Shown here: positions 26,184-50,294 of the stretch, one piece after another
Numbering within the stretch: the stretch's first letter is position 1
Layout of the letters: every line of letters begins with the position of its first letter
Origin: Bacilli bacterium
GTDB taxonomy: Bacteria; Bacillota_I; Bacilli_A; RF39; UBA660
Assembly: GCA_022798795.1 (NCBI GenBank)
Contig: JAAWNF010000001.1
Span: forward strand, 953 to 64,952
DNA length: 64,000 bases
Reading direction: 5' to 3'
Program-made: the position numbers and the translations under genes
Notes under the pieces: generated by a model
Told to the model about the DNA's origin: nothing
Database searches by the model: none
The model's input: only the letters and a program-made list of their open reading frames with translations

Positions 26184-27470
26184 ATGGATAAAATAACAAA
26201 AGTAATGGGAATCAGTATTATTACAAATATTTTTCTTTCAGTTGTAAAGATAGTAACTGGATTTATTGGAAATAGTGGAGCTTTAATTGCTGATGGGATT
26301 CATTCATTTAGTGATTTATCAACTGATTTTATTGCTATTGTGGGAAATTATTTGTCCAGAAAACCAGCAGATGAAAAACATCCTTATGGACATGGAAAAA
26401 TAGAATATATTACAAGTATTATTATTAGCTTAGTCATATTATTTTTAGGGGGCTCTATTATTTATGAGTCTTTTCAAAAACAATTTGTAATTCCTAGTAT
26501 GATAGTCGCTCTTATCAGTTTTGTAACAATTGTATTAAAACTTTTGTTATCAAAATATATCATTCGAAAAGGAAAAGAATATAAAAATAATATTTTATTA
26601 GCCAGTGGTTATGAAAGTAGTACAGATGTTATTAGTTCAATTGTAGTTTTCGTATCTGTACTATTGATGCAATTGTCTAAAACTTGGATGATTTTCAAAT
26701 ATGCAGATATGATAGCAAGTATTATAGTTGGGATATTAATTATAAAAATTGGCTATAGTATTTTAAGTGAAAACATGAGTACTATTTTAGAAGAACAAGA
26801 AACAAATAAAGAATATTTAGATTCTTTAAAAGAAATTATATTAAAAGATGGTAATATTCATCATATAGACAATTTATTGGTTTTAAAATATGGTTCTTAT
26901 TATAAGTTAGTTGCTGAAGTAAGTGTTGACTCGAGATTATCAATCATGGAAGCTCATCAATATGCTCATGAAGCTGAAAATCGGCTTAAAATGTTTGATT
27001 CGAAAATTATTTATGTAACAATACATGTGAATCCATACCAAAAATACAAGCTTATAAAGGCAACAAAAAGAGATTTTGAGAAAATTTACAAATATCGATT
27101 GGAAACAATTATCACAGAAGGAAAGCCAGAGATTGAAGAGCAAAAACGAATTGAAAGATATGTGAAAAAGGGTTTGAAAGAACATTTGAATGATTATTTT
27201 ATGATTACTGTGGAAGGAAATAAAATAGGAACAGTAGGGTATTATATAACAGATGATAATACAATTTTAATAGAAGAACTTTATTTAGAAGAAATATACA
27301 GGAATTGTAAAATAGGGACTTCAATTTTAAATCATATTATATTAAAGCATAAAGATAAAGAAATTACTCTTTGGGTATATAAAAATAATAAAATTGCAAT
27401 TTCACTATATCAATGTTTAGGCTTCAAAAAAATAGAAGAAACAAAAGAGAGAATGAAAATGAGAAAATGA
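26184..27470 (+). CDS. Cation diffusion facilitator (CDF) transporter fused to a C-terminal GNAT-like acetyltransferase domain
   Basis: CDF signature (SGALIADGIHSFSDL...HPYGHGKIEY), six TM helices and a cytoplasmic domain. The last ~110 aa resemble a GNAT fold (TVGYYITDDNTILIEELYL...YQCLGFKK). Confidence 0.6.
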   Translation: MDKITKVMGISIITNIFLSVVKIVTGFIGNSGALIADGIHSFSDLSTDFIAIVGNYLSRKPADEKHPYGHGKIEYITSIIISLVILFLGGSIIYESFQKQFVIPSMIVALISFVTIVLKLLLSKYIIRKGKEYKNNILLASGYESSTDVISSIVVFVSVLLMQLSKTWMIFKYADMIASIIVGILIIKIGYSILSENMSTILEEQETNKEYLDSLKEIILKDGNIHHIDNLLVLKYGSYYKLVAEVSVDSRLSIMEAHQYAHEAENRLKMFDSKIIYVTIHVNPYQKYKLIKATKRDFEKIYKYRLETIITEGKPEIEEQKRIERYVKKGLKEHLNDYFMITVEGNKIGTVGYYITDDNTILIEELYLEEIYRNCKIGTSILNHIILKHKDKEITLWVYKNNKIAISLYQCLGFKKIEETKERMKMRK

Positions 27471-32948: not shown

Positions 32949-35072
32949 ATGAATGGTGGAAATCCATATGAAGAAAATTTAAAAAATGTATTAGAAAAAT
33001 ATGGCAGGGATATTGTTCAGAGTGTAAAAGATGGAAAAGTAGACCCAGTTATTGGTAGAGATGAAGAAATTAGAAGCATTACTAGAATCCTTTCTAGAAA
33101 AACAAAAAATAATCCAGTTTTAATTGGAGAACCAGGAGTAGGAAAAACAGCAATTGTAGAAGGATTAGCAAGTCGTATTATAAAAGGAGATGTTCCAGCT
33201 TCCTTGAAAAATAAACGAATTTGGGAATTAGATATGGGAGCATTAATAGCAGGAGCAAAATATCGTGGAGAATTTGAGGAACGATTAAAAGCAGTTCTAA
33301 AAGAGATTAAAGACTCTAATGGAGAAATTATCATGTTTATCGATGAAATTCATATGATTGTAGGTGCAGGAGCTTTAGAAGGAGCTATGGACGCTGGAAA
33401 TATGTTAAAACCAATGTTGGCTCGTGGAGAAATTAAAGTGATTGGTGCTACTACATTAAATGAATATCGTAAGTATATTGAAAAAGATGGAGCCTTAGAA
33501 AGACGTTTCCAAAAAGTATTAGTAAAAGAACCAAATGTTATAGATACTATTACAATATTAAGAGGTCTAAAGCAAAGATTTGAAGTATATCATGGTGTTA
33601 ATATAAAAGATAGGGCTTTAGTAGCAGCAGCAACATTATCAGACCGTTATATTACAGACCGATTCTTGCCAGATAAAGCAATAGATTTGGTAGATGAAGC
33701 ATGTGCTACAATAAAAGTGCAAATGGATTCTGTTCCAGTAGAACTAGATACGCTAACTAGAGAAATTATGCAATTAGAAATAGAACTTGCCGCTTTAAAA
33801 AAAGATAATGATGAAATGTCTAAAAAAAGAGTAGCTGAAATTAAAGAACAAATCACAGTATTAAAAGAAAAAGAAACAGAGTTACGTAATAAATGGCAAG
33901 ATGAAAAGAAAATAAACGACCAAGTAAAATCAAAAAAAGCCGAACTAGAAAAATCACGATTTGAATTAGAACAAGCTGAAAACAATTATGATTTGGAAGC
34001 AGCAGCAAAACTAAGACATGGAACTATTCCAAAACTAGAACGTGAATTAGAAGAATTAAAAGCAAATGATAAATCTGATATGTTAAGTGATACAGTAGAT
34101 GAAGAAGGAATTGCTGCAATTATTTCTAAGTGGACCAATATTCCAGTTCAGAAATTAGTAAGTGGTGAAAAAGAGAAACTCATTCATTTAGAAGAGAATA
34201 TGCAAAAAAGAGTAAAAGGTCAAGAAGAAGCACTAAAATTAGTCAGTGAGGCAATTCTTCGTGCTAGAGCGGGAATTAAAGACCCTAATAGACCAATCGG
34301 TTCCTTTATTTTCTTAGGACCAACTGGAGTAGGAAAAACAGAAGTTGCTAGAACTTTAGCTTATGAACTATTTGATGATGAACGTCACATGATTCGAATT
34401 GATATGAGTGAATATATGGAAGCACATTCTGTATCTAGGTTAGTAGGAGCGCCTCCAGGATATGTTGGATATGATGAGGGGGGACAATTAACAGAGGCAG
34501 TTAGGAGAAATCCATATAGTATCGTTTTATTTGATGAAATTGAAAAAGCGCATAAAGATGTTTTTAATATATTACTTCAAATATTAGATGATGGAAGAAT
34601 TACAGATAGTCAAGGTAGAACAGTAGATTTTAAAAATACGATTATTATTATGACTTCTAATTTAGGTAGCGAATATATTTTAGAAAATAAAGAAAATAGT
34701 AGGGAATTAATTCATACGGAATTAAGACACACATTTAAACCAGAATTTTTAAATCGTATTGATGAAATTATTATTTTTAAACCATTAACCAAAGAAGTTA
34801 TCTATGATATTTTAAATAAGATTGTTAGTGAAATTGAATATCGACTAAGTGATAAACATCTTACTATTGAATTAACAGAAAATGCCAAAAAATTCATTAT
34901 AGAAGAATCTTATGATGAAAATTATGGAGCTCGTCCAATTAAACGCTATGTAAGCAGAAATTTAGAAACTTTACTTGCTGAAAAAATAATTATGGATGAA
35001 ATAAAATTTGATAGCAAAATTGTTATAGATATAGAAAATAATACATTTATTATAAAAAACGTAGAAAAATAA
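32949..35072 (+). CDS. clpB: ClpB-type AAA+ disaggregase lacking the N-terminal domain
   Basis: Two AAA+ modules (GEPGVGKT; GPTGVGKT) with an intervening coiled-coil M-domain. ~707 aa instead of ~860. The ORF begins directly at the NBD1 upstream region ([24 protein letters not shown]). Confidence 0.85.
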
Positions 35073-35646
35073 TTCTGCGTTTTTTATGTGTTTCTGATGA
35101 AGCAAATATCAAAAATTAAAACATTATCAACATATCATGATGGGTAGAAAATAAATGAAGAAAAATAGATTTTTACTATTTTGTTAGCAAAATTTACATA
35201 AAAAAACTACCAAAATGCAATGTTTAAAAAAGCTATCAAAATCATTTATATTTAAAAGTAGTGTGTTATATAATAACGTTTATCGGATTTATTTGATTGA
35301 TAATTGCCTTTAAAAGAGAGTTGATAATATGCGAAAAGATAATTTTATTTCCTCTTTGATATTGCTTAATTTTATAAAACTTATTTTAATTTTTATTTTT
35401 GTATTATTTATAATTATAAACTACTAAAAGGTTATCAGGAGATTTATGGAAAACAAAAACAAGCACTTCAGCATTTAGAAAATAGTGCTTGTCCGATATC
35501 CAATAGGGCAGTACTTGATTTTAAACAAACAATACTATTATAGCCAATTAACAGAAATTAATTTACACCTATTTACATTGAACTAGGAATACAAATATTG
35601 ACGACCTTTTAAATGAGAGTTATATTATAAATAGGAGGCTTATGAA

Positions 35647-36600
35647 ATGGAACTTAATGTACAAGAAGCAATACAAGGAACAGTAGAATTTTTAAATAGA
35701 ACATATTATTCTTTTGTACGTCCTGATTTTAGTAAGTATAGTAGTATTTATTCATTTTCAACAGAAAATTTATCTTATTTAGAAAAAATTAATTTAGACG
35801 GAAAAGATGTTTTAACTGTAACTGGTAGTTTTGACCAAACTTTTAATTTGATATATGAGGGTGCAAAAAAGATTTGTAATTTTGATACAAATGTGAATAC
35901 AGTCTTTTATGCCCAATTAAAAATGGCAGCAATGAAAGCATTTTCTTATCAAGAATATTTACAGTTCTTTTTTGGAGACAGTAAGATGGATTATGGTATG
36001 TATCAAAGATTAATCCCGTTTTTAGAATATTGGAATTCTATATATCAATTATTTTCCAATGATGGTAATGCGTTATTTGCATCAAAATTAATAGAAGCCC
36101 CATCAAATATTAAAAATACTATTCTTGGCAATCCTTATTTATATAGTGAAGAAAATTATGAACAAACAAAATCCAGATTAGATGATGTAGAGATATCATT
36201 TACAGAAAAAGATGTACTAGAAATTGGAGAAGGTAGTGATACATATGATGCCATGTTCTTTTCTAATATTGAGTCTTATTTAGTAAGCGATTGCTTTAGT
36301 ACAATGGTTAGCAATGAATATATAGAATTTATTCAAAATAAGGCTAGCAAACAATTAAATGATGGTGGTATTATTCAAATGGCTTATCAATATGGTTATA
36401 AAACTAAAATTAAAGCAACAGGAAGTTTTTTGAAAAGGTTGTTTCATACGAAATTTAGAATTCAAGGACTTGATTATTTAGAAGGAAAGTTTAAAACTGT
36501 TACATTTATGGGATTTCCACTATGGAGAAATGTAGAAATTACAAAAGATGTACAAGATTGTATTTACTTGTATGAAAAATCAAAAGGAAAATCAATGTAG
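35647..36600 (+). CDS. DUF3419 / BtaA-like putative SAM-dependent (3-amino-3-carboxypropyl) transferase family protein
   Basis: Block DVLTVTGSFDQTFNLIYEGAKKICNFDTNVNTVFYAQLKMAAMKAFSYQEYLQFFFG resembles the DUF3419 N-terminal SAM-binding region, recalled from memory. RBS aggagg. Confidence 0.35.
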   Translation: MELNVQEAIQGTVEFLNRTYYSFVRPDFSKYSSIYSFSTENLSYLEKINLDGKDVLTVTGSFDQTFNLIYEGAKKICNFDTNVNTVFYAQLKMAAMKAFSYQEYLQFFFGDSKMDYGMYQRLIPFLEYWNSIYQLFSNDGNALFASKLIEAPSNIKNTILGNPYLYSEENYEQTKSRLDDVEISFTEKDVLEIGEGSDTYDAMFFSNIESYLVSDCFSTMVSNEYIEFIQNKASKQLNDGGIIQMAYQYGYKTKIKATGSFLKRLFHTKFRIQGLDYLEGKFKTVTFMGFPLWRNVEITKDVQDCIYLYEKSKGKSM

Positions 36601-36672
36601 GGAACTACATTTTTTTTTGACTAGATATTGTTTACAATATTATAATATGTACTAATTTATTGGAGGAATTGT

Positions 36673-37935
36673 ATGAAAAAAATATGGATAGGTGGATATG
36701 GTGCTTGCAGCAATTATAATGAAAAAGCAATGATTAAAGAGTTAGTGAAAAATCTCAAACTTGAATTTGTAGAGTCAGAAGAAGCAGATATTGTAATCAT
36801 AACAGATACCTGCTTAGCGACTTATCAACAAATGATTAATAGTTATAAATGTATTGAAGATATTTAAAAAAGGGTAAAAGCGGATGCCGAAATAATTGTG
36901 AGCGGTTGTATATCAAAGGGAGTAAAATTTGAGTTAACAGAAGAACAAAAAGAATTATTAGCAAAAATAGAAATTGTAAAACAGGAAGAACTTGTTCCAT
37001 ATGTAGCAAACTTATTAAGAGGTTACAATATGGAGGATGAATTTGATATCCCATATTCAGTAGATAATGTTTCTATTTCACTTTCTCCAGTTTCTTGCTG
37101 CTTAAACCATTGTAGTTTTTGTAAAAGTCATTATATGAATTTTGAATTAAAAAGTTATCCGTTTGAAAAGGTAGAAAGTTTAGCATCTGATATTGAAGAA
37201 ATTGATTATCCATTTCATCATATTGCAATTCATGCATCAAATTTAAGTCTTTATGGAGTTGACTTATATGGAAACAGAAGGTCTCATGAAGTGATAAAGA
37301 CTTTCACAAAACCAGATAAAATCAAATTTGCTTATGTAGGAGCTTTAATTAATTGGTATCCGGAATTGATAGAAGAAATTATTAGAAATCATAAAATTAA
37401 AGAAATTTTTGTTTCATTAGAAAGTGGAAGTGAAAGAGTTTATAACTTAATGAACCGACCAATTTCATTAGAAAGTTTAATTAAACTAATCCGCTTTATT
37501 AGAAAAGAAAGACCAGATATTATTATTCATACAGAACTGATAGCAGGATTTCCAACTGAAACAATAGAGGATTTAAAAAGAACCATTGATTTAATTTACG
37601 AACTTGATATTGACCCAGTATTTGTGCATGATTACCAGAACTCAGAACAAATTCCATCTTCAATGCTGCTAGGGCATTCTTATAATTATTGTATGGAAGC
37701 AGCATATTATGCTAGAGAAAAATTATTGCCATTACGGGAGAAATTTAAAGAGAAAATTTGGACTGGAGAAATGTTTGTTCTTGAAAAAAATGAGGAACAA
37801 AAACTTTATTTTGCCATGTTAATGAATGGAATATTAAGGAATGTTCGTTTTGACCAACTAGATAGAGACTATCAAGAGGGAGAAATTATTCCAGCAAACA
37901 CAGTAAAGCCAAAACAATTCGTAAAAAGAAAATAA
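36673..37935 (+). pseudogene. MiaB/RimO/MtaB-family radical SAM methylthiotransferase interrupted by a single in-frame TAA at 36865..36867
   Basis: ORFs 36673..36867 and 36898..37935 are in the same frame, and 225 nt separates their starts. The N-terminal MTTase domain (KIWIGGYGACSNYNE...EADIVIITDTCL) continues through the stop as IEDI*KRVKADAEIIVSGCISKG, followed by the radical SAM C-x3-C-x2-C (CLNHCSFC). The stop lies in an A-run (taaaaaagg). Confidence 0.6.
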
Positions 37936-38019
37936 AAAAGGTACGAAAATATACTTTTTAAGTTTGTATATCAACATTATAAATGTTATAATTTGAATAT
38001 AATATTAGGAGGGTGTCAT

Positions 38020-40002
38020 ATGCTCAATATTAATAATGATGAATGGCTTATTAGGAATGGTCGATTAATAGAATACAGGAAAAATGAAGATGAAGTTGTT
38101 ATACCAGAAGGAGTAACTGAAATTGAGTCAATGGTATTTAGAGGGAAAAAATTTGGTACTATTACAATGCCAGGGACAATTCGAAAATTTCCACCCTGCT
38201 TTCTGGAAACTGGTTTTTATAAAGATAAGATAATCTTAAAAGAAGGAATAGAGTATATTACTCCTCTTGCCTTTTGTCGTGCCAATGTAAAAGAAGTTGT
38301 TTTTCCTAACTCTCTTAAAGTAATAGGGAAATATGCTTTTTCAGAAGCTTTTTATAGTTATCACACTCGTTTAATATTAAATCATGGTCTTGAAAAGATT
38401 GAAGAATGTGCATTTAAAAATGCTCTACATTTTGATTCCATTGTTATTCCTAAAACAGTTGTAGAAATAGCTTCTGATGCATTTGCTGGTTGTCAAAATT
38501 ATTCCTCTCTTTACTGTTTCTTTTCAAATGCAACTAAATTAAACCTTTTTGAAATACAAGACTTCAAAGAAATGTACCATGTTCATATTTGTACGCTTAA
38601 CGATTTTAATATGCGTCAAGCAATTTCACTAATAAAACCATGTCATGAAAAATGTACAATTTATTTTGAGGGATATAGTAATCCAGTTGTGAAGGCAATT
38701 TTGGATACAACGTGTTCTGGAACAGTGACAATGACTAAAGAGATAACCTCTCCCGAATTTCTTAATAAAGAAAGTGTTATTTTACCAGAAACATCGAATT
38801 TAATGGATAAAGAAATAGATGATTTAATAAATCAAATCAAGAGTAAAATCTTATTATTAGATGCAGATACTAGAAATTCTATTTCAAATCAATTAAACTA
38901 TTTAATAGATGAATATAGAAAAAATTTAGAAGAAGCAAAGCCAAAATTTGGACTTAATGTAGAAGAAAGCTTAACTACATTACCTGATATTCCATCTATA
39001 AGAATTCACTTCATAACAAATTTAAATAAAATTATTATGTATATGAATAGATTAGATAATACTATCGCTTTGAGGAAAAAAATCAATCATTATAAAGAAT
39101 TTATTGTAAAAGGTGTGAAACCTCAAGAAAGTGATGAGAAGAATTTTCAAAAAATAGAAGATATTATCCTAAAAACTAATAGTTTTACATCTAATGAGTA
39201 TGTTAAAAATAGTTTATTCAGTATTTTAAATGAAATAGACTATGAATTAGAAAAATCATTTAAAACATTCTTTCACACCTCGCTTACATTATCTAATTTT
39301 AGTGATTATGAAACTATATTAGCCACTAAAATAGAAGAATTTTATGCAAAAGTATTAATGTCAACTGATTTTTATCAAGCATTATTTGGTAATCATAAAA
39401 CATCTTTGGGAAATGATATTGAAACTTTAAAAACTATTATTGCCTCTTTGGATACAAATAGTCAGTCAAAATATGAGAATAGATTAACAAGTGTCCTTTT
39501 AAAATATAATTCTAAAATAGAACATTTAGAGATAAATTATCATACTGAAATTGAGATAAGAAAAGAATTGATGCCCATTATTCGTGAACTTGCAAACATA
39601 GTGGGAAATATTACAGATCGAAAAAGCTTGTTAGATGATTTGACTTCAGCTAAAAATTTGTTAGCTGGTGACGAAATTAATTATTTAGGAAGTATAAGTA
39701 GTACTATTAAAGATATTATGAATTTATTAAGTAATCAGTTTGTAGATGAAATTTTAAAGCAAGAAATTATTACATCTTTGAATGAATTATTAAATAATTC
39801 TTATAGTCAAATTATAAATAATACATTTCCTATAAAAGAAAATAGCATCATGAAAAATTTTAACTTGAATTTTCAAATTACTTTACAAATACTTAAAAGC
39901 ATTTATGGAATAAAATTTAATTTAGAAAGTTTCATCAAAAAAACGAGTGATTATAATGCTAGTTTATCTAGTATGTTGAATAATGGTAAACATAATCGTT
40001 GA
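38020..40002 (+). CDS. BspA-type leucine-rich-repeat protein with a long C-terminal alpha-helical region, apparently cytoplasmic
   Basis: RBS aggaggg before the ATG at 38020. BspA-like LRR units (IPEGVTEIESMVFRG, ITPLAFCRANVKEVVFPNSLKVIGKYAFSE, IEECAFKNALHFDSIVIPKTVVEIASDAFAGC). No signal peptide. The C-terminal ~400 aa are helical and Asn/Ile/Lys-rich. Confidence 0.5.
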   Translation: MLNINNDEWLIRNGRLIEYRKNEDEVVIPEGVTEIESMVFRGKKFGTITMPGTIRKFPPCFLETGFYKDKIILKEGIEYITPLAFCRANVKEVVFPNSLKVIGKYAFSEAFYSYHTRLILNHGLEKIEECAFKNALHFDSIVIPKTVVEIASDAFAGCQNYSSLYCFFSNATKLNLFEIQDFKEMYHVHICTLNDFNMRQAISLIKPCHEKCTIYFEGYSNPVVKAILDTTCSGTVTMTKEITSPEFLNKESVILPETSNLMDKEIDDLINQIKSKILLLDADTRNSISNQLNYLIDEYRKNLEEAKPKFGLNVEESLTTLPDIPSIRIHFITNLNKIIMYMNRLDNTIALRKKINHYKEFIVKGVKPQESDEKNFQKIEDIILKTNSFTSNEYVKNSLFSILNEIDYELEKSFKTFFHTSLTLSNFSDYETILATKIEEFYAKVLMSTDFYQALFGNHKTSLGNDIETLKTIIASLDTNSQSKYENRLTSVLLKYNSKIEHLEINYHTEIEIRKELMPIIRELANIVGNITDRKSLLDDLTSAKNLLAGDEINYLGSISSTIKDIMNLLSNQFVDEILKQEIITSLNELLNNSYSQIINNTFPIKENSIMKNFNLNFQITLQILKSIYGIKFNLESFIKKTSDYNASLSSMLNNGKHNR

Positions 40003-40087
40003 TATAAAATGTAAGTATAATTATTGAATAATAAATTACTATTGAGTATAACTAAAAAGTATAAGAAGAATATACTTTTTTATTTTT

Positions 40088-40114
40088 TTAGCACTCATAT
40101 ATTGACAATGCTAA
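40088..40114 (+). promoter_or_regulatory. CIRCE-like operator upstream of hrcA (degenerate right arm)
   Basis: ttagcactc-N9-caatgctaa: the left arm is perfect and the right arm matches 7 of 9. It overlaps the predicted promoter. Confidence 0.6.
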
Positions 40115-40130
40115 CATATAATGTTATACT
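40102..40130 (+). promoter_or_regulatory. Promoter of the hrcA-grpE-dnaK operon
   Basis: ttgaca-N17-tatact. Confidence 0.5.
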
Positions 40131-40172
40131 GATAGCAGTGTTTGAAAGAGAGTGCCAAAGAGGTGAAAAGAA

Positions 40173-41162
40173 ATGATGAATGATAGACAGACTGAACTAT
40201 TAAAATTAATTATTGAAGATTATATTAAAACAGCAAGACCAGTCAGTTCAAAATCACTTTGTGAAATCATGAATTGTTCGAGTGCGACCATTAGAAATGA
40301 AATGGCTACATTAGAAGATTTCGGCTACTTAGAAAAAACACATACTTCATCTGGACGTGTTCCAAGTGAAAAAGGCTATCGTTATTATGTTGATTATATT
40401 ATGAAACCAAAGGAAATGAATGGGGAAGATATGTTAAAATTACAAACGATTTTCCACAACCAATCACTTGCTTTAAATGATGCAATTCTAAGAAGTATGG
40501 AAATTATTTCTGAACTTACAAGTTATACATCAGTAGTTTTAGGAAGTTCTTCGAAAGAAAATAAAGTAACTAAAGTAGAAGTGGTTCCATTAAATGACTT
40601 TCAGTTTATCACTATTGTTGTAACAGATAAAGGTCATGTAGAACATAGAACTATGAATTTACCAGATACAATTTCTGTAGAAGAAGTACGCCAAACAGTA
40701 GAGTTAATCAACAAATTAATTATAGGTACTCCAATTGATGAAGTTAGTAGCAAACTGGAATTTGAAGTAAAACCAGTGATTGCAAAATATATAAAACAGC
40801 ACGAGGTTCTTTATAATGCCTTCTATAGTGCATTTAGTGACTTTACAAAAGAAGCGAATGTTAGAGTGACAGGAACAAAAAATATTTTAATGCAACCAGA
40901 ATTTGATGATGCAACTAAAATTAGAGAAATCATGAATAAGTTTGAAGACCAAAGTATGATTAACAATATTAAGGAAGAAGACAATGGAATTAATATTTAT
41001 ATTGGTAGTGAAAACGAGTTTGATGATGATGTCACTGTAATTAAAACAAAATATTCATTAGGTGGAGAAGAAGGAACAATTGCTTTAATAGGACCAAAAA
41101 GAATGGAATATGACCGAGTAATTGCATTACTCGACTATATTAAACAAAACATAGGGATATAA
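40173..41162 (+). CDS. hrcA: Heat-inducible transcription repressor HrcA
   Basis: N-terminal winged helix (RQTELLKLIIEDYIKTARPVSSKSL) in the operon position before grpE. ~329 aa. Confidence 0.85.
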   Translation: MMNDRQTELLKLIIEDYIKTARPVSSKSLCEIMNCSSATIRNEMATLEDFGYLEKTHTSSGRVPSEKGYRYYVDYIMKPKEMNGEDMLKLQTIFHNQSLALNDAILRSMEIISELTSYTSVVLGSSSKENKVTKVEVVPLNDFQFITIVVTDKGHVEHRTMNLPDTISVEEVRQTVELINKLIIGTPIDEVSSKLEFEVKPVIAKYIKQHEVLYNAFYSAFSDFTKEANVRVTGTKNILMQPEFDDATKIREIMNKFEDQSMINNIKEEDNGINIYIGSENEFDDDVTVIKTKYSLGGEEGTIALIGPKRMEYDRVIALLDYIKQNIGI

Positions 41163-41785: not shown

Positions 41786-42202
41786 ATGGATAGATGTTAT
41801 TTTATAGAAAAAGAAACGTTTGAAATTTATGAAGAACATCCTAAAGTATTTAGCTGTGACCCAATGATAGCAAAAGTAATTTCAAAATTAAATAAGTTAG
41901 GATATTATACTTTAGCAAGCTGTGAAAGTCATTATGAAATAAAAGAATATGATATTTCATATCCAAAAGAGAAAATGGTAACAGGAATTTATATTTTATT
42001 CAAAAGTAAGTATGAATTTCCAAATATTCCAGAAGGATTTATAGTAGAAGAATTAGGAGAGAAGACTTGTTTATCTCATACGATTAATTATTTTAATGCT
42101 TCTGGTAATTACAAAAATCGAACTGAATTTGAACAGGAAAAAGAAAAATATTGCAAGATAATTACAGAATGGGCAATGAATTTGCCAGAAAGAGAAAGGT
42201 GA
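41786..42202 (+). CDS. Hypothetical 138-aa protein inserted between grpE and dnaK
   Basis: The ATG sits 1 nt after the grpE stop. Cys/His-containing sequence (CDPMIAKV...LASCESHYE) with no recognised family. Confidence 0.4.
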
Positions 42203-47744: not shown

Positions 47745-50294
47745 ATGAAGAAAAAAGGGTTTACATTAATTGAGTTATTGGCTGTCATTATAATACTAGC
47801 CGTTATAGCACTTATCACTGTTCCAATTGTGCTAAATATTATTGAGAAATCTAGAAAGCAAGCTTTTTTAAATAGTGCTTATGGTATTATGGAAACAGCC
47901 CAAACTTATTATGCAACGGCTTTGATTTTTGAAGAAACACCAAAGCAATTATTTACTTTTCCAAATGACAAAGTATTGTCTTTTACAGGAACAAGACCAA
48001 AAAGCGGATATGTAGAAATTAATGAAGAAGGTAGAATAGAACTTCAATTATATAATGGAAAATGGTGTGCTTATAAAAGTTATTATGCGCCAAAGATTCA
48101 TTTAGAAGAAGGTGCTTGTAGTGATTTCAAAGGAAGTATCGTTGTCGAGGAAGAAGAAACCACTTATTTTAAAGGGGAAATGATTGATATATTAAAAGGG
48201 GTAACCGCTTATGATAATGAAAATCATACTGTAGAAAATAATATTGGTTATGAGGGAACTGTGGATAGAAAAACTCCAGGAGATTATCACATTACTTATT
48301 ATTTAAAAAATGACAAAAATGTAAAAGCAGAAAAAGTTTTTCATATTTTAGATGAACGATATCATGCTGATTTTGAATATACTGGAAATGTTCAAAAATT
48401 TGAAGCTCTTTATGATGGTCTTTATGAAATAGAATTATGGGGAGCAGCAGGTGGAAGAAATGAAGATGCCCCTTATGGTTATGGTGCTTATACAAAAGGC
48501 ACAATTCATTTAAAAAAGGGAGATACATTTTATATTTATGTTGGTGAAAAAGGAAAAAATAATCATAAAGTTTCCTTTAATGGAGGCGGATATTATGGCG
48601 GTCAAAAAGGCTATGAAGGAAACGCTGGAGGAGGTGGCGGAGTAGCGCACTTTGAATACAATACAGCTGGAGAAAAGAGCTATGCTGGGACATTAACTGG
48701 ATATAATGGTGGTTATTATCATGGCCATCCTTATAATAATCAAGAGGGAAAAGGTGGAACACAAATATCTGGTGGAACAAATGGAAATAATGTTCATAAT
48801 GGAACAGGAACTACGTATTCTGGAAGTTTTGGAAAAGGTGGAAATAACGATTCTATATCTGACGGTCTTGGAGCTGGAGGAGGTGGCGGCGGCTACTACG
48901 GCGGTGGAGCTGGAGGTGCTACCAAAAACGGAGGCTCTGGTCAAGGAGGCGGAGGAGGTTCTTCCTTTATCTCTGGGTATCCAGGCGTAAATGCCATTCA
49001 TAAAGATGGTTCGCCATCTGGACAACCAAATCATTATTCTGGCATTGTATTTCGTGATGCTTTCATGCTAAGCGGAAAGGAAGAAATGCCAAATCCTAGA
49101 AAAGAGGGAACAATGAATGGCAACTCTGAAGATGGTTATGTACGTATCACACTATTGCATGATATAGAAGACCACGCCATGATTTATTTATTGGGAGAAG
49201 AACAAGTAATACAAAGGACTGATACTTTTGAAGACCCAGGGTATGAAATTTTATTAGGAAATTCACCAAGTGGAATAAAATATCATGTTGAAGTCAAAGA
49301 TGATGCAAAAGATACACTTTGGAATATGCGTACCATTACATATCAGCTCTATAATGATAAAAATCAGTTAATTGAAACAAAAATAAGAAAAATTCTTCAT
49401 GTTTCTGATATGAATTATGACTATACTGGCAATTATGAGACTTTTACTGTTCCAGCAAGTGGTACTTATCAAATTGAACTATGGGGAGCAACTGGTGGAT
49501 TTTATGAAGGAACAGAACAATTTAGTAAAGGTGGATATACAAAAGGAAATATTGCTTTAACAAAAGGACAGAAACTATATATTTATATAGGCGAAAAGGG
49601 AAAAGTAGCAAGCCGAACTCCAACTTTTAATGGAGGAGGAACAGGCGGACTTGGAACAAGTTATGGAACTTCTGGTGGTGGAGCAACAGATATTCGTCTT
49701 GAAAGCGGAGATTGGGACAATATAGATAGTTTAAAATCGAGAATTATGGTCGCTGGAGGTGGTGGTGGTTCTTCTCTTGGAGTTTATACAACTGCTGGAG
49801 GAGGGAGCTACGCAGGCGGATTACAAGGCTATAGTGGAGGATACTATAGCGGACATGCTTATAACAACCAGGATGGAAAAGGTGGTACTCAAATAGCAGG
49901 AGGAACAAACGGAAATAACATTTATGGTGGAACAGGAACTCCTTATTCCGGAAGCTTTGGAAAAGGCGGAAATAACGACTCTGTATCCGATGGCACAGGT
50001 GCTGGAGGCGGTGGAGGAGGCTACTACGGAGGTGGAGCAGGAGGCGCTACCAAATCAGGCGGTTCTGGCCAAGGAGGTGGAGGAGGTTCTTCCTTTATCT
50101 CTGGCTATAATGGATGCAATGCTATTAATGAATCATTAAAACCGACAGGTAGCTCAATTCATTACTCTAATATGAGTTTTAAAAATGCTTTGATGTTAAG
50201 TGGAAGAGAAGAAATGCCAAATCCAAGAGGAACTGGAAATATCAATGGAAATAATGACCATGGATATGCTAGAATTCGTTTTGTATCGTTTTAA
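47745..50294 (+). CDS. Modular type IV pilin/pseudopilin-like protein with a tandemly duplicated glycine-rich C-terminal module
   Basis: Class III (prepilin) signal KKG|FTLIELLAVIIILAVIALI with Phe+1 and Glu+5. ~800 aa follow, containing two homologous modules (YTGN..F..P.SG.YEIELWGAAGG...YTKG.I.L.KG...YIY.GEKGK...FNGGG...) and poly-Gly stretches reminiscent of the Gly_rich (PF12810-like) / ALK glycine-rich domain. Confidence 0.6.
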   Translation: MKKKGFTLIELLAVIIILAVIALITVPIVLNIIEKSRKQAFLNSAYGIMETAQTYYATALIFEETPKQLFTFPNDKVLSFTGTRPKSGYVEINEEGRIELQLYNGKWCAYKSYYAPKIHLEEGACSDFKGSIVVEEEETTYFKGEMIDILKGVTAYDNENHTVENNIGYEGTVDRKTPGDYHITYYLKNDKNVKAEKVFHILDERYHADFEYTGNVQKFEALYDGLYEIELWGAAGGRNEDAPYGYGAYTKGTIHLKKGDTFYIYVGEKGKNNHKVSFNGGGYYGGQKGYEGNAGGGGGVAHFEYNTAGEKSYAGTLTGYNGGYYHGHPYNNQEGKGGTQISGGTNGNNVHNGTGTTYSGSFGKGGNNDSISDGLGAGGGGGGYYGGGAGGATKNGGSGQGGGGGSSFISGYPGVNAIHKDGSPSGQPNHYSGIVFRDAFMLSGKEEMPNPRKEGTMNGNSEDGYVRITLLHDIEDHAMIYLLGEEQVIQRTDTFEDPGYEILLGNSPSGIKYHVEVKDDAKDTLWNMRTITYQLYNDKNQLIETKIRKILHVSDMNYDYTGNYETFTVPASGTYQIELWGATGGFYEGTEQFSKGGYTKGNIALTKGQKLYIYIGEKGKVASRTPTFNGGGTGGLGTSYGTSGGGATDIRLESGDWDNIDSLKSRIMVAGGGGGSSLGVYTTAGGGSYAGGLQGYSGGYYSGHAYNNQDGKGGTQIAGGTNGNNIYGGTGTPYSGSFGKGGNNDSVSDGTGAGGGGGGYYGGGAGGATKSGGSGQGGGGGSSFISGYNGCNAINESLKPTGSSIHYSNMSFKNALMLSGREEMPNPRGTGNINGNNDHGYARIRFVSF
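48340..49145 (+). repeat. Intragenic tandem duplication, copy 1 (DNA-level identity most obvious at ~48730..49140)
   Basis: Long near-identical stretches shared with 49855..50265, e.g. ggaaaaggtgga...ggaacaaa.ggaaataa and ggaggttcttcctttatctctgg. Confidence 0.6.
49400..50290 (+). repeat. Intragenic tandem duplication, copy 2
   Basis: See copy 1. The modules are ~1.1 kb apart. Protein-level repeats are YTGNVQKFEALYDGLYEIELWGAAGG and YTGNYETFTVPASGTYQIELWGATGG. Confidence 0.6.

Follow-up and report, generated by a model that had tools for sequence, protein, structure and literature searches.

A probable young pseudogene of a methylthiotransferase-like radical SAM gene with a premature stop codon common to all sampled strains

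In a 64-kb stretch of DNA from an uncultured gut Bacilli bacterium (the window, by which the whole stretch analysed is meant), a locus split by one in-frame TAA is best explained as a young nonsense pseudogene of a methylthiotransferase (MTTase)-like radical SAM gene, a reading to which we give a probability of roughly 90%. As demonstrated in this analysis, the stop codon is real and common to all sampled strains, selection on the gene is relaxed and secondary lesions are present.

Two reading frames as pieces of one gene

The open reading frames 36673..36867 and 36898..37935 are, to judge from their sequence, pieces of one ancestral gene, and this far beyond chance, because they share a frame, a single domain match (UPF0004) crosses the stop and the fused reading aligns over its full length to uninterrupted homologues. 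Past the TAA at 36865-36867, the same frame stays open up to the TAA at 37933-37935, and GTG 36898, at which the second reading frame begins, is the Val76 codon of the fused reading and merely the first start-type codon past the stop. NCBI annotation presents the 64-aa piece as the hypothetical protein MCI9232988.1 and 36898..37935 as a 345-aa 'radical SAM protein', MCI9232989.1. The features of the locus are as follows.

36617..36646, + strand: candidate sigma-70-like promoter 5' of the broken gene (TTGACT, 18-nt spacer, TATAAT; 11/12 matches)
36662..36666, + strand: Shine-Dalgarno GGAGG, as read from the sequence, 6 nt 5' of ATG 36673
36673..36864, + strand: codons 1-64, the first two thirds of the N-terminal MTTase (UPF0004) domain
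36706-36708 and 36811-36813, + strand: auxiliary-cluster cysteines C12 and C47, within codons 1-64, invariant in alignment A1
36865..36867, + strand: premature in-frame TAA, codon 65/420, which ends the 64-codon reading frame opened by ATG 36673
36868..37935, + strand: codons 66-420 and the normal stop, comprising the remainder of UPF0004, the radical SAM core and a C-terminal beta-rich domain
36907-36909, + strand: third auxiliary-cluster cysteine C79, invariant in alignment A1
37096..37098, + strand: codon 142 TGC (Cys), in the family an invariant Gly just before CxxxCxxC; strain L002 keeps GGC
37099..37122, + strand: radical SAM cluster motif C143-x3-C147-x2-C150 (CLNHCSFC), all three Cys invariant
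37331..37343, + strand: site of a 13-bp frameshifting deletion (CTTATGTAGGAGC), deleted in L003, L007 and L008, inside the conserved KFAYVGALINWY segment

The fused 420-aa product matches Pfam UPF0004 (PF00919) over residues 3-94 (32.5 bits vs a cut-off of 27) and Radical_SAM (PF04055) over residues 139-308 (50.3 bits vs 29.5). The UPF0004 match passes unbroken over the stop, which cuts the domain between C47 and C79. The earlier note, from which this analysis started, had read the two same-frame ORFs as one MiaB/RimO-like protein, and the 420-aa fused reading with its end-to-end homologues bears this out; the junction is likewise as it had described, reading ...CIEDI-TAA-KRVKADAEIIVSGC... with the stop at the start of the A-run, that is, at a T3/A6 junction (GATATTTAAAAAAGG). 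A TTGACC...TATAAT layout similar to the candidate promoter precedes the intact orthologues of L015 and L018, and the sequence that would serve as sigma-70-like promoter of the broken gene is apparently still intact.

The stop codon in other strains and its probable origin

The exact 64-aa product occurs on contigs from nine further samples (Logan, ENA assemblies) in addition to the NCBI metagenome-assembled genome (MAG), and the base at 36866 is an A in 10/10 assemblies. Compared with the window, the sampled contigs have an identity of 97.4-100%, and they vary among themselves at other sites. As they were fetched via the 64-aa product, a query that takes the stop for granted, the absence of an intact allele rests on a separate protein search: among 5.8 billion clustered proteins no intact allele of >80% identity was found, the best full-length homologue being 80% identical, and the 90% cluster of the 345-aa piece consists of fragments only (345, 345, 189, 145 and 54 aa). 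The species' own genome was not found in the GTDB representative set, in which the best locus is 77% identical. The ten assemblies are independent and stem from several projects, with several samples probably belonging to the same studies, as their run accessions are neighbouring; the assemblies are thus independent, but perhaps do not represent independent populations.

That the stop reflects a sequencing or assembly error, with a sense codon at 36865-36867 of the true genome, was one of the options considered by the earlier note. The position of the stop at the junction of a T-run and an A-run, a context which is error-prone on some platforms, speaks for such an error, but it is refuted to near certainty by the recurrence of the same TAA in 10 samples that were assembled independently and stem from several projects. 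The assemblies differ at other sites and hence are not copies of one assembly, while a homopolymer-length error does not fit as the frame is kept. The TAA at codon 65 is real, inherited and common to all sampled strains.

With respect to the origin of the stop, codon 65 in the six closest species is TTA (L018, L020, L022, L023), TCA (L011) or GTC (L015), and Leu occupies the corresponding column in 41/58 family members. As the closest species possess sense codons, mostly TTA, one T-to-A change explains the stop (compare GATATTTTAAAAAGG in L020 with GATATTTAAAAAAGG in the window). The ancestral codon 65 was most likely TTA (Leu), from which a T-to-A transversion at 36866 would have given TAA; among the residues that had been guessed for this position beforehand, namely Lys, Leu or Gln, the alignment of orthologues favours Leu.

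The gene order in L015-L017 is clpB-DUF3419-MTTase(421 aa, intact)-hrcA-grpE-orf138-dnaK, and the window matches this order of the sister species apart from a leucine-rich repeat (LRR) gene before hrcA. L018-L019 show the order DUF3419 ... MTTase-hrcA-grpE-orf138, where four small genes separate DUF3419 from the MTTase gene. A functional tie to the neighbouring DUF3419 gene was considered and is not supported, the adjacency being lost in the contigs of the closest orthologue (S4 - MTTase - AAA protein).

The neighbourhood offers some observations in its own right. The gene at 37993-40002 (probable start ATG 38020), located between the broken MTTase gene and hrcA, codes for a BspA-type LRR protein (PF13306) of 660-669 aa. 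In L015-L019, which are sister species, hrcA comes next after the MTTase gene, at a distance of ~115 nt, and the LRR gene is therefore an insertion specific to this lineage within the heat-shock genes from clpB to dnaK. A 138-aa ORF without Pfam match between grpE and dnaK (41786-42202) is kept in position and length in L015-L019. In the DUF3419 gene (35647-36600), 15 bp around 36018 (TTTTTAGAAGAACCA, 5 codons, in frame) are missing from the window, L001 and L006 and present in L002-L005, so that the product is 317 aa long in the window vs 322 aa in L002-L005 and in the sister-species orthologues. Within clpB (33688-35072), blocks of polymorphisms are private to single strains or pairs of strains, such as a densely polymorphic run in L004 (33701-34121) and those that L002 and L003 have in common (34142-34235), a pattern resembling a mosaic produced by recombination. 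Diversity is much lower in the adjoining DUF3419-MTTase-LRR stretch. Farther downstream, 47745-50294 codes for a protein of 849 aa which bears a prepilin-type N-methylation motif at its N-terminus, contains a bacterial surface Ig-like domain and strongly matches the ALK/LTK glycine-rich domain (PF12810, 257 bits).

Selection, later lesions and rival explanations

The ancestor of the species would have possessed an intact MTTase-like radical SAM gene of ~421 aa between the DUF3419 gene and hrcA, in which a single T-to-A substitution would have converted codon 65, most likely TTA for Leu, to TAA. Translation from the still intact candidate promoter and ribosome-binding site should since stop after 64 residues, giving a peptide with two of the three auxiliary [4Fe-4S] cysteines and none of the radical SAM core, from which an active enzyme would not be expected. 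The remainder of the gene would then drift neutrally, with the replacement of invariant residues and a 13-bp frameshift in one sub-lineage.

The polymorphisms in the ten assemblies agree with such a course. The MTTase gene shows 8 nonsynonymous and 1 synonymous polymorphisms, a small sample of 9 SNPs, compared with a nonsynonymous to synonymous ratio of 15:80 in all flanking genes together (Fisher p = 1.5e-5) and of 13:73 in clpB alone. The gene has 1013 nonsynonymous and 244 synonymous sites, for which neutrality predicts a ratio of 4.16:1, and the observed 8:1 conforms to it (binomial p = 1.0), while the ratio in clpB departs from neutrality (p = 2e-41). All polymorphisms of the MTTase gene (9/9) fall 3' of the stop and 8/9 are nonsynonymous. 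Within the species, selection on the MTTase-like gene is relaxed, compatible with neutrality.

Among the replacements, G142C and S161N affect invariant residues and D197V affects a residue conserved in at least 90% of alignment A2, which comprises 68 sequences, canonical MTTases included. G142C is the allele of the window itself; L002 retains Gly. Whereas the stop is present in all strains, G142C is found in every strain covering the site except L002, S161N in five strains, R67K and D197V in four strains and R203K and the 13-bp deletion in three. As expected, these nested lesions fit a stepwise decay along the genealogy of the strains. Comparison between species was uninformative as a test of relaxation, as dN/dS of the window copy (0.19-0.29) equals the values among intact orthologues (0.10-0.28) and shows only recency. 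With such a dN/dS and a deviation at only 2/94 family-conserved positions, the inactivation appears to be recent relative to speciation.

Pseudogenes that owe their origin to a single nonsense mutation form in host-associated bacteria with shrinking genomes. The locus shares with such nonsense pseudogenes the one premature stop in a well-preserved frame, the retained expression signals and the relaxed selection followed by secondary lesions in sub-lineages. Nothing essential is different, the case being unusual only for the clarity with which the nested lesions can be seen in public metagenomes. The shared stop, the relaxed selection and the secondary lesions thus support the recent nonsense pseudogene that the earlier note had put forward as one of its options. 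Counting against a pseudogene are the retention of the promoter-like site, of the Shine-Dalgarno sequence and of nearly all conserved residues, with the TAA as the sole obvious lesion in L002. In strains with only the TAA, such as L002, in which G142, S161 and D197 are kept, some active enzyme might thus still arise by basal read-through of UAA or by reinitiation at GTG 36898 with complementation between the fragments, although we consider this improbable. If true, the stop would be a strong down-regulator rather than a full knockout, and the decay in other strains would mean that the gene is only weakly useful.

A functional split gene, in which reinitiation at GTG 36898 would yield a 345-aa piece that assembles non-covalently with the 64-aa piece into an active enzyme, is very unlikely. 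Termination and reinitiation across 31 nt would be physically possible, nearly all conserved residues are kept in both pieces and the break is positioned at the end of the predicted helix 51-67 and before the strand 73-76, not within a strand. On the other hand, no Shine-Dalgarno motif is present at working distance 5' of GTG 36898, while other genes here have GGAGG, and this GTG is a plain Val76 codon, in the position of which orthologues have GTA, ATG or GTG. The split would part C12 and C47 from C79, all ligands of one cluster, and a natural split at codon 65 is found in 0 of about 90 homologues. Moreover, the 345-aa piece shows neutral polymorphism, replaced conserved residues and, in three samples, the 13-bp frameshift.

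Still less probable is programmed read-through or recoding, another option of the earlier note, by which an amino acid would be inserted at the UAA of codon 65 often enough to supply useful amounts of full-length enzyme. The frame is kept across the stop, the expression signals are intact and basal near-cognate read-through always occurs, but the stop codon is conserved in no other species, the closest six having sense codons (TTA, TCA or GTC) in its place, and the sequence 3' of the stop is without purifying selection and frameshifted in some strains, which leaves this option unsupported. TAA ends 25/44 long ORFs in the window and is as such the commonest terminator, with all three stop codons in use. 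No tRNA genes were found in the window and hence no suppressor there, and no Rfam element was found near the stop at 35000-40200 (E <= 0.1), the two sub-threshold matches elsewhere being chance matches. Selenocysteine is encoded by UGA and pyrrolysine by UAG, and we know of no recoding for either amino acid at UAA. With these programmed systems the locus shares, superficially only, a conserved enzyme gene interrupted by an in-frame stop; it differs in the codon, in the absence of the stop from orthologues and in the unconstrained 3' sequence.

An altered genetic code with TAA as a sense codon might be thought of for a very AT-rich genome (~29% GC) with the label 'Tenericutes', some members of which use a variant code, but it has a negligible probability, as the long ORFs are intact under table 11 and TAA terminates, within the 25/44 mentioned, clpB, hrcA, grpE, dnaK and dnaJ at lengths matching their families. 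Frameshifting or transcriptional slippage at the A-run is rejected on logic, since the frame before the stop is also the frame after it and the run has six A only, so that a slip of 1-2 bases would break the frame rather than rescue it.

The parent family and the meaning of its loss

The search of the 5.8 billion clustered proteins yielded ~90 uninterrupted homologues of 416-440 aa and 34-80% identity which span the whole fused reading and in the alignment of which C12, C47, C79 and C143, C147, C150 are invariant. Four clades are known among the MTTases (MiaB, RimO, MtaB, e-MtaB), which consist of three domains, MTTase, radical SAM and TRAM (PMC10702137). The best NCBIfam match of the fused product is the MiaB/RimO family model TIGR00089, with 134.2 bits vs a curated cut-off of 251, and the subfamily models score lower still (TIGR01578, 108.7 vs 314.7; TIGR01125, 98.4 vs 357; TIGR01579, 88.8 vs 357; TIGR01574, 69.2 vs 355), such that the product stays below the cut-offs for the family and for all four subfamilies. 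A search of the fused product for the Pfam TRAM domains (PF01938, PF18693) gave no match at E <= 0.1.

For P0001, the closest intact homologue (80% identical), the AlphaFold model (pLDDT 95.9) has a beta-rich C-terminal domain with strands at 367-373, 378-383 and 388-392, a domain which was aligned only within the whole chain. In Foldseek comparisons, the model aligns over its full length to MtaB (9A6D), MiaB (7MJV-Z) and RimO (4JC0) in 434-454 columns, with TM scores of 0.67-0.73 at ~20% identity. A profile search of the PDB recovered RimO at 1e-76 and MiaB at 1e-65, using a profile from alignment A2 which itself includes canonical MTTase sequences. By its architecture and modelled fold, the ancestral protein is a predicted member of the MTTase superfamily with no assignable subfamily or substrate.

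Shared with the MiaB/RimO/MtaB/e-MtaB MTTases of the TIGR00089 superfamily are the UPF0004 domain with three Cys, the radical SAM CxxxCxxC motif and the fold, while the low identity to the solved enzymes, the sub-cut-off scores and the missing Pfam TRAM match set the protein apart, as does the interruption of the window copy, which is presumably inactive. Because the scores are far below the cut-offs and no Pfam TRAM is recognised, the gene belongs to a divergent clade rather than to the canonical housekeeping MiaB, RimO or MtaB. The parent family is a coherent, divergent and uncharacterised clade of ~90 three-domain MTTase-like proteins from MAGs of uncultured Bacilli/'Tenericutes'. The 'conserved tRNA/ribosomal-protein modification enzyme' that had been proposed earlier thus goes too far (134 bits vs 251), although membership of the superfamily holds. 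A second group of shorter relatives (L028-L042) has ~30% identity and aligns only over query residues ~3-330, with P0093 and P0094 having 368-369 aa. No second MTTase paralogue was detected in the 64-kb window by phmmer against all ORFs of at least 150 aa, and the tandem 428-aa ORFs at 26184 and 27724, considered as paralogues, are unrelated.

Other lineages also carry broken copies. L101 (953-2260), a member of the same clade, has an apparent in-frame stop at codon 363 on a single contig, and L099 (1434-2330) is a 5'-truncated remnant which starts inside CxxxCxxC, such that of the three radical SAM cysteines two are lost together with the N-terminal domain. The MTTase-like gene seems to be dispensable and to have been lost repeatedly in these gut bacteria. 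As the scores stay below the cut-offs and the clade is limited to MAGs of uncultured Bacilli/'Tenericutes', losing the gene need not impair any core function.

With respect to annotation, MCI9232988.1 and MCI9232989.1 ought to become a single entry marked as a pseudogene, beyond which the broken copy is of little import. The case also shows that public metagenome assemblies alone can distinguish a true pseudogene from a sequencing error and from recoding and can even order the lesions. The interesting target would not be the broken copy, but the intact orthologues of this divergent MTTase clade.
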